A stretch of 64,000 nt of DNA from a virus (lineage: Duplodnaviria; Heunggongvirae; Uroviricota; Caudoviricetes): the IMG/VR virus record IMGVR_UViG_3300013126_000009. One strand, written 5' to 3'. The notes under the pieces are model-generated. The model made no database searches, was not told the origin of the DNA, and saw only the letters and a program-made list of their open reading frames with translations. Position 1 is the stretch's first letter; the number at the start of each line of letters is the position of its first letter. A program made the position numbers and the translations under genes. Positions 1-57,406 of this stretch are shown here, piece by piece.

Positions 1-57
1 GAAACACCAGAAAAACCAAAAGATAGTCCATTTGAATGTTTTGGTTGTAGTGCATAA
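1..57 (+). CDS. 3' end of a gene, probably class I ribonucleotide reductase alpha subunit (partial)
   Basis: Frame 1 reads ETPEKPKDSPFECFGCSA*. A terminal CxxCxx pair is typical of NrdA C-termini; only 18 residues are visible. Confidence 0.45.
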   Translation, partial: ETPEKPKDSPFECFGCSA

Positions 58-137
58 CGGTGAGTATAAGCCATCGTTTTAATGTGGCTTATACAGTGTT
101 GTACACAGTACGGGTTTAATGAATTAAAAATAAAATT

Positions 138-551
138 ATGATAACGGAATTAGTAAAGCAATGGGAAGAAAACAAGCATAAGCTTGAAGAGTATTTCAAA
201 ACGACAAAACAAGATGAATACGATAGCTATGAAGCTATTGTAAAGAAGATATTTGAATTGTGCATACCCGAAGCAACCACTTATAACGGATGGGCTTTGG
301 ATAAAATGACTGTAATTGATGATGGTGATTATCAAGGTACACAAATATTTATTGTGCCTACTGACACTTACCAACCAAGTGTGGAAGATTATGTAATGAC
401 TGACACTTATTACGGTAGTTGTAGTGGTTGCGATACTCTTCAAGCGATTAGTGAGTACGATTATGACCTACCAACAAATGAACAAGTTAAAGAGTATATG
501 ACCCTTGCTTTACATTTAGTGCAGAAACTTAAAAGGTTAGGCACAGAGTAG
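138..551 (+). CDS. cassette-borne hypothetical protein (YGSCSGCD motif)
   Basis: 137-aa ORF filling cassette 1. Confidence 0.8.
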   Translation: MITELVKQWEENKHKLEEYFKTTKQDEYDSYEAIVKKIFELCIPEATTYNGWALDKMTVIDDGDYQGTQIFIVPTDTYQPSVEDYVMTDTYYGSCSGCDTLQAISEYDYDLPTNEQVKEYMTLALHLVQKLKRLGTE

Positions 552-678
552 TATTGTGTACAACGGACGAGTGTATGGGTAGTGGCACATACACCGAACC
601 TTTGAATTATGCCACAAACTTTAACGTGCCATTACTTATACACATTGTTGTGTGTAGTAGCGGTTTAATAACAGAAAG

Positions 679-894
679 ATGACAGTAGATAGAGAACATA
701 CAGAAATTTTTGACCAAGCACACCAAATGTGGGCAGAAGGTACAAGCATTGGAAGCGGAGAAGGTTTAGAACCAAAAGAACACGACATTCAACACTTATT
801 AGGTGGAGAGGGTTGGGTTGCTGATGAAATTGATATTTGGTTTGATAGCCTTCAAAAATTTTGGCGATGGAGTTGCAAGATAGTAAAACCGTAG
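679..894 (+). CDS. cassette-borne hypothetical protein
   Basis: 71-aa acidic ORF filling cassette 2; its stop abuts the AAC flank. Confidence 0.65.
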   Translation: MTVDREHTEIFDQAHQMWAEGTSIGSGEGLEPKEHDIQHLLGGEGWVADEIDIWFDSLQKFWRWSCKIVKP

Positions 895-1039
895 CTATTA
901 CACACAACGGTTTCGGGCTTGGCGTTAGTGCCACCTTGCAAGAACTTTAAATTTAGGCACAAACTATCTGGTGGCATTACGCCAAACCCGTGTTATCGGA
1001 TAGTTCATTTTTCGTGGGTTGGCATTTAAGAATTTAAAA

Positions 1040-1342
1040 ATGGAACAAAAATTTAAAACACCAAACATTGCTTTTCAAAATGTCATTTCATTTACTTGTT
1101 CTGATGATGCAGTAAAACCGCTATTAGAATTATTTTCAAGACTACGAAGTCTTGGACAAATGGGAAGTAGTAGAGAAGTGGTAATTGATTGGGATGGTGA
1201 TGGTAGAGATAGACTTGAAAATATTTCAGTAAATGGAATGACATTGGATGCTTGGGAGTCTGAATTTGCAAGACTAAATAAAATCAGGGAAGATTTTGAA
1301 AAGCAAGAACCTTCTTCTGAGCAGGAGTCGGAAGAAAAATGA
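1040..1342 (+). CDS. cassette-borne hypothetical protein
   Basis: ATG at 1040 after an A-rich leader; stop abuts ATTTCCGATAAC. Confidence 0.7.
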   Translation: MEQKFKTPNIAFQNVISFTCSDDAVKPLLELFSRLRSLGQMGSSREVVIDWDGDGRDRLENISVNGMTLDAWESEFARLNKIREDFEKQEPSSEQESEEK

Positions 1343-1453
1343 ATTTCCGATAACGGAACAGGTGTATGAGCCGTGCCTGTTCGGAACTATCGAATTTACT
1401 ACGGCTTTTAATTGGCATGGCTTATACACCATGTTAGCAATCTGTAAAAAATT

Positions 1454-1720
1454 ATGGCAAAATTAAGATTAAACTCAGAAGAAAGAATGCGAATCACCGC
1501 AGACTATAAAGAAAATAACTTCATTGACGTGTGTGGGCATAAAGATGAACTTGGAATGAGCGTTGAATTTTACCCAACTATGCAATATATTGAGATACGT
1601 AAAAAAGGTGGGGTGTGTAGGCAATTTATGTTTGAAAAGAAAGGGCATAAAAAACATTATGACTTTGGATATTGGAAAGATGCAGAAGTTATTTTCTCTC
1701 TCAACGAAGTACGGCAGTAA
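1454..1720 (+). CDS. cassette-borne hypothetical protein
   Basis: 88-aa ORF filling cassette 4. Confidence 0.7.
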   Translation: MAKLRLNSEERMRITADYKENNFIDVCGHKDELGMSVEFYPTMQYIEIRKKGGVCRQFMFEKKGHKKHYDFGYWKDAEVIFSLNEVRQ

Positions 1721-1737
1721 TAATTTTTTATTGTTGC

Positions 1738-1784
1738 TAACGTCTGATGATAAACAATCGTTGTAATGTTGTTTATCATTTGTT
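1738..1784. repeat. 47-bp attC-like palindrome, copy 1 (second copy at 55962-56008)
   Basis: TAACGTCTGATGATAAACAATCGTT(G/T)TAATGTTGTTTATCATTTGTT; 46 of 47 nt identical to 55962-56008. Confidence 0.9.
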
Positions 1785-1853
1785 ATACACAGTACGGTTT
1801 ATTAAGGTAGAATGTTGATACAAAGAGCGGATAAAAACTTTTAAAAAATTTAT

Positions 1854-2201
1854 ATGAAAAATACAAGAGAAAACGCAGAAAAATTTATATGGGACTTTGG
1901 TAAAGGGAAAAGTTTCGTAGATAGACTGGAAGGAGTACCAGATTTTGTTGATTTATTGACTGAGTATGGTAATAAAGTTGAAAACCAATACATACCGAAT
2001 GATGCACATTCGTTTGAAGTATTTGCTATAAAAGATAGCGAGGATTCACCAACTGGAAAACAAGCATTTATTGGTTTTAAACTTGATAATGGGAACTTTC
2101 ATTTTGTTGGAGTACCATACACTGAACCAATAAAAAATAAACAAAACTGGTTCTCGAAATTTTTTAAAAGTTTTATAGACAAACTTAAATTGAAACACTA
2201 A
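1854..2201 (+). CDS. cassette-borne hypothetical protein
   Basis: 115-aa ORF filling cassette 5. Confidence 0.7.
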   Translation: MKNTRENAEKFIWDFGKGKSFVDRLEGVPDFVDLLTEYGNKVENQYIPNDAHSFEVFAIKDSEDSPTGKQAFIGFKLDNGNFHFVGVPYTEPIKNKQNWFSKFFKSFIDKLKLKH

Positions 2202-2216
2202 TGTAGTATTGTGTAT

Positions 2217-2233
2217 AACTAGGATATATACAC
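2217..2233. other. array-terminal (attI-like) site
   Basis: AACTAGGATATATACAC; matches AACTAGAATATATAAAC at 57234-57250, which ends array 2. Confidence 0.55.
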
Positions 2234-2363
2234 ACCTTTTAGTAAGTTATTGATTTTAATATAGTTACAGGGTCATTTTATTAAAAAATATAAAGATTTA
2301 AAAAGAAATCTTATAATTGATATATTAATTTACAAAACTTATTGTTCCAGTATATTTACTATT

Positions 2364-29147: not shown

Positions 29148-30104
29148 ATGGTTTATTCCGTTACGCAAATATTAGAGTCAGTGCTTGGCAACCCCCGTAA
29201 ACATAATCACGGGGCTGGTCAGATTGCTTTTGACTGTCCCACTTGTTCTGAAGAAAAGGGTATGCAACAAGGTGATGGTAAGGGTAATCTAGAGGTAAAT
29301 TATAAGAAAAACGTTTATAGATGCTGGGCTTGTTCTGGTTACAACAACACACACGGTAACCTATTTAAACTAATTAAAACTTATGGTAGTAAGAAAGATT
29401 TAGAAGACTATAAATTACTATTACCATCACTGGATTTTGATGAGGAAATCGTTACTCATAAAAATGAAGAGGTATTAAAATTACCAGAGGGTTATAAGAA
29501 ATTATCAAAATGCACCACCAAAGACTACCTGTATGATAAGGTAATCAATTATCTTAAAAAAAGGGGTGTTACCGATAATATAATAAAACACTACGATATT
29601 GGATATACCACAGTAGGTAAATACAATAACAGGATTATAATACCATCGTATGATGAATTTGGTGATTTGAATTATTTTGTCACTAGGTCATTTGATTCTA
29701 AAGTTAAACCAAAATATTTAAATCCTGACGTTGACAAGCAATCTATAATTTTCAATCATGGTAAACTAAATTTTAATAGTACTATTTATTTGGTAGAAGG
29801 TACATTTGACCATATTGTAATACCAAATTCAATACCACTGTTGGGTAAATATGTGTCAGATAAGTTATGGGTTGAACTACAAAAAGCGAATGGTTATATC
29901 GTAATATTATTAGATTCTGATGCTGTTGAAGACGCTATTAATATTTATAAGAAGTTAAATATTGGTAAGTTATACGGTAGAATTAAAATGAATATACCTC
30001 CAGATGGACATGACCCAAGTACGATATATCAGAATTTAGGGGCTAAAGGTATAAAAATGTTAATTGAGAATAGCTATATACCTAGTGAGAGTAGAATCTA
30101 TTGA
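29148..30104 (+). CDS. DNA primase (Zn finger plus TOPRIM)
   Basis: CPTC...CWAC Zn site; IIIPSYD; LVEGTFD and LDSD TOPRIM motifs; TATATTTG at 29136-29143. Confidence 0.85.
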   Translation: MVYSVTQILESVLGNPRKHNHGAGQIAFDCPTCSEEKGMQQGDGKGNLEVNYKKNVYRCWACSGYNNTHGNLFKLIKTYGSKKDLEDYKLLLPSLDFDEEIVTHKNEEVLKLPEGYKKLSKCTTKDYLYDKVINYLKKRGVTDNIIKHYDIGYTTVGKYNNRIIIPSYDEFGDLNYFVTRSFDSKVKPKYLNPDVDKQSIIFNHGKLNFNSTIYLVEGTFDHIVIPNSIPLLGKYVSDKLWVELQKANGYIVILLDSDAVEDAINIYKKLNIGKLYGRIKMNIPPDGHDPSTIYQNLGAKGIKMLIENSYIPSESRIY

Positions 30105-54072: not shown

Positions 54073-54441
54073 GGGTGTGACTGGATTTGATTGCATGATG
54101 TTCTTTGATATAAGGAAGCACTGCGACTCAGGTTATAGCAGTACAAAATTTACTTGAGAATTATAAAAGGCGAAGATTTCGTTAATTATGAAAGATTCTT
54201 TGCTACTGAAGCAGAAGCTTTAGTGTAAGGGATGTTTGCACCAACAGCATAATAGGTGCCGAGTTAAGACAGCTTAACAAAACCTTTTTAGTTTATTGAG
54301 TTTTAAGGTCAATAAAATTTAATAACGGGTTTTCAAATTCCTGTAAAGATTTGATATTTCGTCAGATTAGAAAATGTGACTAAGCTTGTAGAAAGTATTA
54401 TTGATGCGTGTAAGACGAGAGTTCGAATCTCTCCACATCCA
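54073..54441 (+). ncRNA. ssrA: tmRNA
   Basis: Acceptor GGGTGTG/CACATCC+A with G3:U70; GACTGGATTTGA 5' motif; T-arm GAGA-GTTCGAAT-CTCTC; tag frame 54169-54228 (A)GEDFVNYERFFATEAEALV*. Confidence 0.9.
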
Positions 54442-54460
54442 CACTGAACTTTTGTTCTTA

Positions 54461-54511
54461 AAAAATATGTCATGGTAAAATTATTTCAATGTAGTACCAT
54501 GACATATTTTT
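54461..54511 (+). terminator. long hairpin/terminator after ssrA
   Basis: AAAAATATGTCATGGTA ... TACCATGACATATTTTT. Confidence 0.7.
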
Positions 54512-54632
54512 TAATTATTTGCTTGGTTTTGGTTTTGGTTTACATCCACATCCTTTCATTTTAGTTGATTTTTTGTAAATTGTTATTTATATATAAATAT
54601 AGGAAAATCAAAGGTTTTGTAAATAATTAAAA

Positions 54633-54842
54633 ATGTTCTTAAAAAAAAGGTATAATATAATCACTCGTAATTGGGATGTTATAACCAGATTAAGGTTATC
54701 TGAAACACCGAGAACCAACGAAATGGTTTATATTGAGAATACGGGTAAATACTATGTTGTTTTGAATGTGATACATCGGGAAACATTCTTATTGAATACC
54801 ACGTATATTGTTGTTGAAGAATTAAATGAGAGAAAAAAGTAA
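54633..54842 (+). CDS. hypothetical protein
   Basis: 69 aa. Confidence 0.55.
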   Translation: MFLKKRYNIITRNWDVITRLRLSETPRTNEMVYIENTGKYYVVLNVIHRETFLLNTTYIVVEELNERKK

Positions 54843-54849
54843 TTTTTGA

Positions 54850-54881
54850 TTTGCATATATTGAATATTTAATGTATATTTG
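54850..54881 (+). promoter_or_regulatory. Bacteroidota sigma-A type promoter for the tRNA-fMet/cassette unit
   Basis: TTTG (54850-53), 20 nt, TATATTTG (54874-81). Confidence 0.75.
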
Positions 54882-54908
54882 TATCAGAAATTAAGAAACA
54901 GAAATTAA

Positions 54909-54964
54909 AGAGAGATTTCAGCAAAATTTAGACAATACAATTGAGATGTAAAAAAAGTCTCTCT
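54909..54964 (+). ncRNA. putative structured leader RNA (CAGCAA-containing hairpin)
   Basis: AGAGAGATT/AGTCTCTCT 9-bp closing stem enclosing TCAGCAAAA...TAAAAAA. Confidence 0.35.
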
Positions 54965-54978
54965 GTTTATTATTATAT

Positions 54979-55066
54979 CGCGGGAATGAAGGCTGGTAGT
55001 GATGCCTCGGTAGTCTCATAAGCTACCAACCGTAAAGGTGTGAAAGTGCGATTCTTTCTCCCGCAA
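54979..55066 (+). tRNA. atypical tRNA-Met(CAT), initiator-like acceptor, long variable arm
   Basis: CGCGGGA/TCCCGCA (C1:A72); GTAGT-CTCATAA-GCTAC; 14-15-nt variable region; T-loop TGCGATT. Confidence 0.75.
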
Positions 55067-55100
55067 CAACGGTATTGATAAACCCAGTAATAACAGAAAT

Positions 55101-55355
55101 ATGGCAAAGAGAAAGAAACCTATGACTAAAGACGAACATAACAAAGAAGCTCAAAGATTATTGGGTTTATCTGATGTTATGCATTCGTTGCCTACTGCTT
55201 GGTATTTTGATTGGAATGGAAGTGAGCCTCCAAGAATATTTGATTCCGATGGTAGGTGTGTATGTGTTTTAAGTACAGGCACATTTAGCGGTGCTTACGA
55301 AACTGAACAGATTATTGCAAATGCAAAACGATTGCTTTATGGCAATGATGCATAA
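55101..55355 (+). CDS. cassette-borne hypothetical protein
   Basis: Starts inside the attC loop; stop is the TAAC of the next site. Confidence 0.65.
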   Translation: MAKRKKPMTKDEHNKEAQRLLGLSDVMHSLPTAWYFDWNGSEPPRIFDSDGRCVCVLSTGTFSGAYETEQIIANAKRLLYGNDA

Positions 55356-55423
55356 CGTTAAAGCATTGGTGTCTGTTTGGGCATCAAGGCTTAAAAGTTC
55401 AAATTAACAACTAAAAGATATAT

Positions 55424-55630
55424 ATGCAACAAGACCAGATTACTTCCGTCAGCCAAAATAGCACCAATGCAGTGTTAAATGAAGGGCGAAAATATTGGTA
55501 TGTAGTTGAAACTACTGCTTGTGTTTTGTGTGGTAGAGAAAAAAATAACCGTTATCGTGTTTATGAAGAACCAAAGCCTGAACAAAAGCGCATTTGGAAA
55601 GATGATGCCTGTGGCGAGCATTTCATGTAG
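55424..55630 (+). CDS. cassette-borne hypothetical protein (CxxC...CxxH)
   Basis: Starts inside the attC loop. Confidence 0.55.
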   Translation: MQQDQITSVSQNSTNAVLNEGRKYWYVVETTACVLCGREKNNRYRVYEEPKPEQKRIWKDDACGEHFM

Positions 55631-55747
55631 CTTTTCATTTAACGGTTTGGCTAAGAAGCGTAGCCATGCAATCACGCTTCAAAATTGGCACTACACTTTA
55701 TTGGCTATGCTTTTTAGCCGTTGTTATGTGCCGTTATTATTCGCAAG

Positions 55748-55954
55748 ATGAAAGCAGAAACGAAAAAAATATTAAAAGAACAAGGCAAACTTGACCTTTA
55801 TACAGATGAACGATTTGAGCAAGTTAAAGCTGTAATGAAACACGGAATGACCAAAGACGCTTGGTTAAAGAATTATCTATCCCTAGACTCACTAAACAAG
55901 GCTCAATGGTGTGCAGACCACTTGGTCAAGTTTGTTGAAGGTGGTTATTTATAA
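55748..55954 (+). CDS. cassette-borne hypothetical protein
   Basis: ATG 55748. Confidence 0.6.
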   Translation: MKAETKKILKEQGKLDLYTDERFEQVKAVMKHGMTKDAWLKNYLSLDSLNKAQWCADHLVKFVEGGYL

Positions 55955-55961
55955 TGGCACA

Positions 55962-56008
55962 TAACGTCTGATGATAAACAATCGTTTTAATGTTGTTTAT
56001 CATTTGTT
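55962..56008. repeat. 47-bp attC-like palindrome, copy 2 (first copy at 1738-1784)
   Basis: 46 of 47 nt identical. Confidence 0.9.
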
Positions 56009-56049
56009 ATATTTAGTTGAAATTTTTTTTACTTTTAAAAAAAGAAGTT

Positions 56050-56223
56050 ATGACAGAAATCAATAAATCAAAACTCTACTTAATTCTAACTGTGATGGTT
56101 GGATTTACACTTGTCAATATAATTAAAGATAATAATTGGGTAGGTTATTTACTCTCATTAGTAGTATTTCCACTGATAACTTGGGGTTTGATAGAACTTC
56201 TTTTTAAATATAAATCAAAATAA
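56050..56223 (+). CDS. cassette-borne small membrane protein
   Basis: Two TM segments. Confidence 0.6.
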   Translation: MTEINKSKLYLILTVMVGFTLVNIIKDNNWVGYLLSLVVFPLITWGLIELLFKYKSK

Positions 56224-56305
56224 ATTTTAATTGAATATAATGGGAGTGGCTATGTGTAGTGCCGACCTTGAATAAATTACTACACTAACTAAAAAGATTA
56301 AAGCA

Positions 56306-56548
56306 ATGAGTAAAAAGAAAAAGAACAAAAAAGAGAATAAGGCATTACATATAGGTGGTGTTAGCGGTAGTTCTATTCCAGAACCACCCAAACCACCACT
56401 AAATAGAGTTATTCGAGAAGGTGTAGGGCATTTTTGTACAAATTGCGGTAGTACAATGCCCAGAAGTGGATTTTTAATGTTGTTTGGAGAAAGATACTGT
56501 GATAACAACAAATGCCCAAATAGTAAACCAGTAAAGAATTACCGCTAA
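56306..56548 (+). CDS. cassette-borne Zn-ribbon protein
   Basis: CTNC...CDNNKC; starts inside the attC loop. Confidence 0.6.
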   Translation: MSKKKKNKKENKALHIGGVSGSSIPEPPKPPLNRVIREGVGHFCTNCGSTMPRSGFLMLFGERYCDNNKCPNSKPVKNYR

Positions 56549-56575
56549 CGGTTCACAAATAAAGAAAGTAGCGAT

Positions 56576-56818
56576 ATGAGAGACGAAATAGATAAAATAC
56601 TCGGTGAATTAGTTAGAAAGGAAATAAGCGAAGCCCAAGCGATTGATAAGCTATATTCTTTATTTGATGTTAGCACACGTAAATCTTTGGAAAGTAAAAC
56701 CAAGATTATCACAGATATAAACCAATGGAGCGAAATACTATTGGCTTACAGACACAAAATAAGAGAGCGACCACTTTGGGCAATGATAGCAGACATAAAC
56801 AACAGAACAACGGATTAA
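56576..56818 (+). CDS. cassette-borne hypothetical protein
   Basis: Starts inside the attC loop. Confidence 0.6.
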   Translation: MRDEIDKILGELVRKEISEAQAIDKLYSLFDVSTRKSLESKTKIITDINQWSEILLAYRHKIRERPLWAMIADINNRTTD

Positions 56819-56967
56819 TTATGTGTGCTAACGTATTTGTATATGAAACGTGGCTGATAAGAACACGGAACTTGTCGAAGCGTACTGAACTAAATTAAAT
56901 GCCGTGCATGGTCAAATAAGCCGTACAACAGCCATGTTTTATATACTTTGTTGTGCGCAGTTATATT

Positions 56968-57225
56968 ATGGAGTTTAAAAAACTTACATCAGAAAATTTG
57001 CCTGAACCAAACAAATTGATTTGGATTAAACGAAAAAAAGGAAGCATATACTTAGGGTATAGAGAAGACAAACCTATCGCAACTAATGAAGACGCAAGTA
57101 GAGATTGTTTTTGGTATGCAAACCCAAGCCATTCAATGTTAATGGCGGATGAAAGACAGTTGCGATTCAGGTATAATTTTTCAGACGTTACAGTTGATTC
57201 ATGGGCAGAGGTTGATTTACCTTAA
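56968..57225 (+). CDS. cassette-borne hypothetical protein
   Basis: ATG 56968; LTSENLPEPNKLIWIK N-terminus. Confidence 0.65.
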   Translation: MEFKKLTSENLPEPNKLIWIKRKKGSIYLGYREDKPIATNEDASRDCFWYANPSHSMLMADERQLRFRYNFSDVTVDSWAEVDLP

Positions 57226-57233
57226 TTGCGCAC

Positions 57234-57250
57234 AACTAGAATATATAAAC
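57234..57250. other. array-terminal (attI-like) site
   Basis: AACTAGAATATATAAAC; 15 of 17 nt identical to 2217-2233. Confidence 0.55.
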
Positions 57251-57406
57251 AATTACAATAAATCAAGTTCAAAATGAATGAAAAGGGCTGTTCAACTTTA
57301 AAGATTTGTGAAAAGAAATTTAATTATCTAAACTATTCAGAGAAAACTAAAATAACTTTTGATATACAAAAAAAATTCTGTATATTTGCACAATAATTAA
57401 AAAAAA

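Follow-up and report, generated by a model that had tools for sequence, protein, structure and literature searches.

Seven Hairpin-Led Cassettes behind an Atypical tRNA

The window analysed in this work is a stretch of 64,000 nt, part of a 162.5-kb IMG/VR virus record whose completeness is estimated at 46%. The record encodes a tmRNA, ClpP, DnaJ, a CCA-type enzyme and 20 called tRNAs. The consensus of Bacteroidota promoters is TTTG ... TAnnTTTG; promoters of this type, together with the closest cultured phages that carry a related recombinase (Cellulophaga and Polaribacter phages), suggest that the host belongs to the Bacteroidota. The locus comprises a tRNA, seven small genes (57–85 aa), each standing behind its own imperfect AAC...GTT hairpin, and the remnant of a recombinase gene, all on the plus strand:

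54850–54881, plus strand: candidate promoter of the Bacteroidota type (TTTG ... TAnnTTTG), the sole such −7 element within 54400–57380
54909–54964, plus strand: conserved leader stem of 10 bp, tail U-rich, loop containing an ATG-TAA minigene (54946–51)
54979–55066, plus strand: atypical tRNA with a CAT anticodon (Met-like), the array landing site lying just past its discriminator
55068–55356, plus strand: cassette 1; hairpin 55068–55178 (AAC 55068, GTT 55176); ORF 55101–55355, 84 aa, starting in the hairpin, its stop overlapping the next AAC
55354–55643, plus strand: cassette 2; hairpin 55354–55476 (AAC 55354, GTT 55474); ORF 55424–55630, 68 aa
55641–55965, plus strand: cassette 3; hairpin 55641–55725 (AAC 55641, GTT 55723); ORF 55748–55954, 68 aa
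55963–56241, plus strand: cassette 4; 46-nt hairpin 55963–56008 (AAC 55963, GTT 56006); ORF 56050–56223, 57 aa; right end AAT
56239–56549, plus strand: cassette 5; hairpin 56239–56362 with an AAT core (AAT 56239, GTT 56360); ORF 56306–56548, 80 aa
56547–56832, plus strand: cassette 6; hairpin 56547–56671 (AAC 56547, GTT 56669); ORF 56576–56818, 80 aa
56830–57236, plus strand: cassette 7; hairpin 56830–56952 (AAC 56830, GTT 56950); ORF 56968–57225, 85 aa
57234–57250, plus strand: attI-like insertion site (AAC, 5 nt, TATAT), no hairpin
57274–57396, plus strand: tyrosine recombinase remnant of 40 codons, only the N-terminal ~25 residues
57357–57388, plus strand: second Bacteroidota-type promoter, ahead of a dNMP kinase gene
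57392–57394: possible right junction of the whole insertion, based on the recurrence of 9 nt

The element at 54979–55066 folds into a cloverleaf with a C1:A72 mismatch, a long variable arm and an atypical T-loop. The sequence-only reading took it for tRNA-Met. The cloverleaf and the CAT anticodon support this, but neither ARAGORN (also under relaxed settings) nor Rfam calls it, so that the identity is likely rather than proven. The mismatch is initiator-like, but the anticodon stem lacks the three G-C pairs; no other Met tRNA was called in the record. The tRNA is identical in L003, L098, L099 and L202, relatives whose flanks are only 87% identical. The first cassette AAC starts 2 nt past the discriminator, so the array does begin where the first palindrome had been placed, but the core is AAC at 55068–55070 and not CAAC from 55067: comparison with the empty relative L202 assigns C55067 and the AA after it to the host. 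Further upstream, the phage tmRNA (54073–54444) adjoins a phage ClpP gene; in two related loci (L003:4940–6430 and L004:4930–6790) a long, repeat-containing, endonuclease-like gene stands between clpP and the tmRNA, and it is absent from the window.

The seven hairpins span 46–125 nt. Four of the seven ORFs start within their own hairpin, and the stop codons of two run into the AAC that follows. The array ends, as had been noticed, at an AAC (57234–57236) with no hairpin behind it. The ends of all seven cassettes were likewise confirmed to be complementary, since the flank on the GTT side pairs with the flank preceding the next AAC in 6–7 of 8 bases beyond the core triplet. Such complementarity, together with an intergenic hairpin, is also typical of classical integrons and by itself is no proof of reversed polarity, which is shown by the array ends and the breakpoints described below.

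Taken individually, the hairpins fold weakly (z from −3.5 to about 0), so that the evidence for the array is the chain they form and not single folds. A strand-neutral detector counting only Watson-Crick pairs joined all seven sites into one chain under a threshold that was loosened, after seeing the data, to admit the AAT site, a stricter one having joined only two sites; the maximum reached by 200 dinucleotide shuffles under the same looser threshold was three. The hairpin type of cassette 4 recurs in many cassettes, with a nearly identical copy at position 1739 of the window. Searches of Pfam, NCBIfam and PHROGs gave no function for the seven cassette proteins, apart from one weak match to a PHROG of unknown function.

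The Insertion Site and the Recombinase Family

The site that follows the last cassette is not peculiar to this locus. An AAC-5 nt-TATAT site lies 40–95 nt upstream of related recombinase genes at 77 of the 79 evaluable viral loci, the site itself being conserved and the sequence to its left variable. The same motif, overlooked in the earlier reading, also closes the two other arrays of the genome, so that three arrays of one class are present (window 56–2219, window 55068–57236 and genome 140978–143412). The first (at least five cassettes, window 56–2235 with its att site) has no recombinase gene behind it. The third (genome C1:140978–144061; L001, L002) consists of six cassettes and leads into a tyrosine recombinase gene (PF13495 + PF00589), the only longer, full-frame copy in the genome. 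This copy has suffered an in-frame deletion of 69 residues between two YSVG-coding repeats, which removes the first catalytic Arg and the Lys; its intact relatives, P0002 and P0003, are about 90% identical to it. Behind the second array, the DNA of the att site and the remnant is 76–79% identical to the att sites and recombinase starts of L020, L031 and L046. The remnant at 57274 looks like a member of another subfamily than the third-array enzyme.

With a remnant, a deleted copy or no gene at all behind them, all three platforms in the record are devoid of enzyme function. No intact recombinase was found in the 162-kb record (46% complete); one could possibly be encoded in the part of the genome outside it.

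Intact members of the family are Xer-like tyrosine recombinases of 266–268 aa. P0003 aligns with VchIntIA in two blocks separated by a gap from 180 to 211 in P0003 versus 181 to 260 in IntIA, i.e., the recombinase lacks about 48 residues corresponding to the I2 insert region. I2 has been described as integrase-specific and tied to the recognition of extrahelical bases (Escudero et al. 2016, PMC4792948). The profile scores place the enzyme below all the cut-offs: 146–153 bits against 265 for IntI (TIGR02249), 170–178 against 220 for XerA, and 136–150 against about 330 for XerC and XerD. An AlphaFold model (pLDDT 81) matches XerA, IntI4 and XerH at similar Z with a large rmsd, so the predicted fold would be that of an ordinary tyrosine recombinase and nothing more specific.

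About 2,600 related proteins were found. At 80 bacterial loci with recombinases 40–50% identical, a strict detector revealed almost no hairpin arrays, L100 possibly having one; bacterial homologues at this level of identity are thus not shown to run the system described here. For the phage arrays, it is very probable that cassette recombination is catalysed by this family, a link of enzyme to site that rests on their adjacency.

Breakpoints in Variant Arrays

To locate the crossover, we used 268 cassette calls parsed upstream of att sites. Cassettes shared between differing contexts break at AAC on both sides, the upstream hairpin being kept and the downstream one not. This is seen in a duplicate inside L077, in the reshuffled sister arrays L022, L046, L047 and L060, and in L018 compared with L052. 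The cassettes of the locus itself behave in the same way. Cassette 1 has a homologue in L205 that begins at the upstream AAC and ends at the downstream one. Five further phage loci share cassette 3; beginning at the upstream AAC their sequences are nearly the same, before it they are unrelated, and homology stops at the downstream AAC. The homologue of cassette 5 in L033 ends at the same AAC, as do those of cassette 7 in L188 and L189. The latter two carry a different upstream hairpin; therefore, hairpins are exchanged by other routes too.

Cultured Polaribacter phages behave likewise: Freya_10 and Freya_9 differ by one 307-bp block, and Freya_6 and Freya_5 by one 472-bp block, each at the att AAC. 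The results clearly agree with the claim that each attC-like hairpin stands ahead of its own gene with the crossover at the AAC side. When crossovers were mapped in polymorphic relatives, as the sequence-only reading had proposed, the breaks fell at AAC rather than at G|TT, the hairpin travelled with the gene downstream of it, and modular gain and loss were seen at the locus itself. An AA|C crossover is also consistent with the empty site of L202, which reads AA|T. As judged from these comparisons, the hairpin belongs to the downstream gene, the crossover is at AAC, and units are gained, lost, duplicated and reordered there. By the same criterion new units enter beside the att site, so that the array grows at its recombinase end, and cassette 7 is probably the newest of the seven.

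Hairpin Anatomy and Strand Bias

Of 230 distinct cassettes, 227 fold better on the gene-sense strand, which also carries the longest ORF in 219 of 225. The bases opposed on the gene strand of the parsed sites include 360 G.T against 19 A.C in a recount with neutral scoring, the site set itself having first been gathered with a detector that favours G.T. The two arms are unequal. In 238 of 241 sites, the spacer of the AAC arm, on the gene strand, holds 2–4 extra bases. In a catalogue confined to the spacers, these are mostly 5×2, 5×1, 6×2 and 5×3. A fresh strand-neutral scan upstream of recombinase genes showed the AAC arm to have the longer spacer in 233 hairpins and the opposite arrangement in 18, and the same scan downstream of the recombinase gave 6 versus 16. 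Three bases are nearly invariant, namely the G after AAC, the T before GTT (229 of 230) and the A nine bases from the 3′ end (229 of 230). The lengths of the 230 cassette hairpins cluster at about 46, 85 and 123 nt, in steps of roughly 38–39 nt.

These features bear on whether the cassette site acts as folded DNA. The alternative would be that the same enzyme moves the same cassettes through two double-stranded sites, in the manner of Xer/dif or pdif-like systems, and that the hairpins are kept for a role in RNA (processing, stability or translation start). Such a mechanism would suit an enzyme that lacks I2 and scores best against archaeal XerA, and an att site with the dif-like TAA-6 nt-TAT spacing. 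It would also suit the G.T bias on the mRNA strand, for which selection on RNA structure could be another source, and the start of 90 of 237 ORFs within the hairpin. It does not fit the invariant elements on the GTT arm, which lie 40–120 nt from the crossover and meet the AAC only on folding, nor the flanks of a cassette, whose mutual pairing requires the excised circle, nor the fixed spacer asymmetry of 2–4 nt. We therefore hold exchange between two double-stranded sites to be improbable. Flanks that pair in the circle only, together with invariant bases on the far arm, point instead to a folded DNA substrate, and the cassette site is likely to be used as a folded single strand. On the Xer side, the integration of CTXphi (IMEX) is a case in which XerC can act on a folded single strand.

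A folded site would also be expected if the array were a classical integron, or a CALIN moved by a host IntI, that is simply read from the opposite strand, its genes being inverted by chance. The AAC crossover triplet is common to both, the hairpin sites of 46–125 nt are in keeping with it, and an attI-like site lies beside a recombinase with the IntI-type N-terminal domain (PF13495). Moreover, Qi et al. 2023 (PMC9892861) have published CALINs, i.e., clusters of attC-like sites, from virulent phages, Polaribacter phage P12002L among them. In integron attC sites, it is the bottom strand that folds, with a spacer of 5–6 nt in both arms and extrahelical bases near L″ (PMC5027507, Nivina et al. 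2016). In the sites studied here, the place of the extra bases is the spacer of the cleaved AAC arm, in contrast to single extrahelical bases close to L″ in the GTT arm of the strand that folds. I2 is missing from the enzyme family encoded next to the arrays, and with the gene of 219 in 225 cassettes lying on the strand that folds, this orientation is a rule and no accident. Finally, P12002L_attC1, which matches a site of this class on the gene-sense strand ahead of a methyltransferase gene, was the only one of six sites that gave no recombinants with IntI1 (PMC9892861). This is a single negative obtained in E. coli, and it points the same way. Movement by a host IntI is thus very improbable. 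The earlier reading had left the choice between a distinct system and an integron read from the opposite strand. What stands of the latter is the layout, which is that of a classical integron along its bottom strand, but that very strand also carries the genes, the hairpins have another geometry, and the recombinase is not an IntI.

The Locus in Relatives and the Part of the tRNA

In six related contigs (L003, L098, L099, L202, L203 and L204), several of which are near-identical to one another, the kinase gene comes after the same tRNA and no array separates the two. L202, whose upstream protein is identical, matches the window up to AA and then has T where the window has C. Nine bases around this point of divergence recur at 57390–98, and the sequences diverge beyond those nine. 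From this recurrence we see an even chance that the block 55070–57393 arrived as a unit at the AA|T site.

In L201, the upstream gene, the att site and the recombinase start are identical to those of the window, and the sequences diverge to the left of the AAC, where L201 has two different cassettes; the 3′ half of its tRNA is lost. This comparison shows that the platform is shared, its content variable and the tRNA dispensable. The deletion in L201 (1016–1075) fuses the D arm of the tRNA to the 3′ arm of a cassette hairpin, wrecking both.

The position of the array could suggest a tRNA-targeted island in which the 3′ end of the tRNA serves as the attachment site that recruits cassettes. As in islands and prophages of this kind, the insertion lies beside the 3′ end of an intact tRNA, the array beginning 2 nt past the discriminator at a place that is empty in six related contigs. 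In contrast to them, no copy of the tRNA end was found at the far boundary or between the cassettes, the only match to the post-tRNA sequence being the 9 nt at 57390–98, and growth takes place at the opposite (att) end. Nor is the tRNA general to the system. ARAGORN detected no upstream tRNA on the plus strand at any of 80 related recombinase loci, although atypical tRNAs like this one would be missed, no tRNA stands at the start of the genome's two other arrays, and L201 has lost half of its own. Recruitment of cassettes by the tRNA end is the most improbable of the explanations considered here. The docking at a tRNA that had been noticed earlier is thus a local event and no defining trait: the tRNA is the landing site of this platform and probably the source of its promoter, not a component of the cassette system.

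Expression of the Array

No Bacteroidota-type promoter was found inside the array. The possibility that the hairpins act as cassette promoters was rejected, TAnnTTTG not being enriched in them (28 forward versus 32 reverse occurrences among 244 hairpins). It had been proposed that the array is transcribed from the promoter at 54850–81 through the tRNA; we find it fairly likely that the array genes are co-transcribed with the tRNA in this way. The cassette genes would then probably be read from the upstream promoter with the oldest first, opposite to the Pc gradient of integrons. A terminator-like stem stands between the promoter and the tRNA, and transcription may be attenuated there. The leader stem shows one compensatory change among five sequences, and with its minigene (54909–54975 region) it is kept in L004, which lost the tRNA. 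Preceding a tRNA with a CAT anticodon, it might possibly be an attenuator that senses methionine or initiation.

Discussion

Taken together, the results lead us to consider it highly likely that the locus carries a gene-cassette platform of an integron-like system, common in Bacteroidota phages and characterised by a compact enzyme, exchange at AA|C and hairpin-led units. The mobile unit would consist of a hairpin, a small gene and a short flank ending in AA. A 267-aa Xer-like recombinase, encoded just downstream of the double-stranded att site on the same strand as the genes, would perform the exchange at AA|C, with the gene-sense strand serving as the folded single-strand cassette site. Once the cassette is excised as a circle, its two flanks would lengthen the stem, and the resulting junction would be resolved by replication, as in integrons. 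As for the history of the locus, we suggest that the platform entered at AA|T just past the tRNA discriminator, which placed it behind the tRNA promoter, and that its recombinase gene then decayed to the remnant, so that the array would now either be immobile or depend on an enzyme supplied in trans. With I2 absent, this explanation does not account for what prevents a second strand exchange.

The likeness to integrons, both class 1 and the sedentary ones of Vibrio, is extensive. A tyrosine recombinase gene lies beside a hairpin-less, attI-like insertion site (77 of 79 genes) and is encoded on the folding strand. Promoterless one-gene cassettes with complementary ends form an array, the crossover falls in an AAC triplet, and the imperfect hairpins are strand-biased. 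The newest cassette stands next to the insertion site, and modules are gained, lost and reordered. Unlike integrons, however, this system has its genes on the folding strand, so that the hairpin precedes the gene and the genes point towards att and the recombinase. There is no Pc at the att end, the candidate promoter being at the far end. The 267-aa enzyme has no I2 insert. The spacer is asymmetric (5–6 by 1–3 nt), its extra bases belonging to the AAC arm, unlike the extrahelical bases on the L″ side in integrons. Finally, the system is found mainly in phages. It works like an integron, and fails integron membership on the enzyme, the site architecture and the polarity.

With Xer/dif and pdif systems it shares a compact enzyme without I2 and the dif-like spacing at att, but here a single phage-encoded enzyme scores below all Xer cut-offs and the cassettes form serial, polar, hairpin-led arrays. 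The phage CALINs have been regarded as classical attC sites that lack a dedicated enzyme, and no cognate recombinase, att site or reversed polarity was described for them (PMC9892861). We found no published description of the present system in a search that reached few subscription journals.

We lean slightly towards a broader view, in which these arrays would represent a second integron-type lineage native to Bacteroidota phages, with an I2-less enzyme, a folded gene-sense strand and platforms that jump to secondary AAC or AAT sites. If this is true, the lineage would either have invented integron chemistry independently or stand in, as a living form, for the ancestor that preceded I2. The origin of integrons from Xer-like recombinases and the need for I2 in single-strand cassette recombination are open questions (PMC4792948), which become testable with a small enzyme and defined att and hairpin rules. 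The system also supplies a mechanism that could account for the abundance of tiny orphan genes in Bacteroidota phages. A further implication is that such arrays are overlooked or given the wrong orientation by integron finders. Comparison of the filled and empty states of one locus hints at how a platform colonises a new site. Testable material is at hand in the cultured Polaribacter phage Freya isolates, which differ by single cassettes at the predicted base. P12002L (L193), a cultured phage without an annotated integrase, has about ten hairpins of this class on the minus strand (e.g., at 30055, 31313, 32280, 38089, 38935 and 39244), several of which precede DNA methyltransferase genes.
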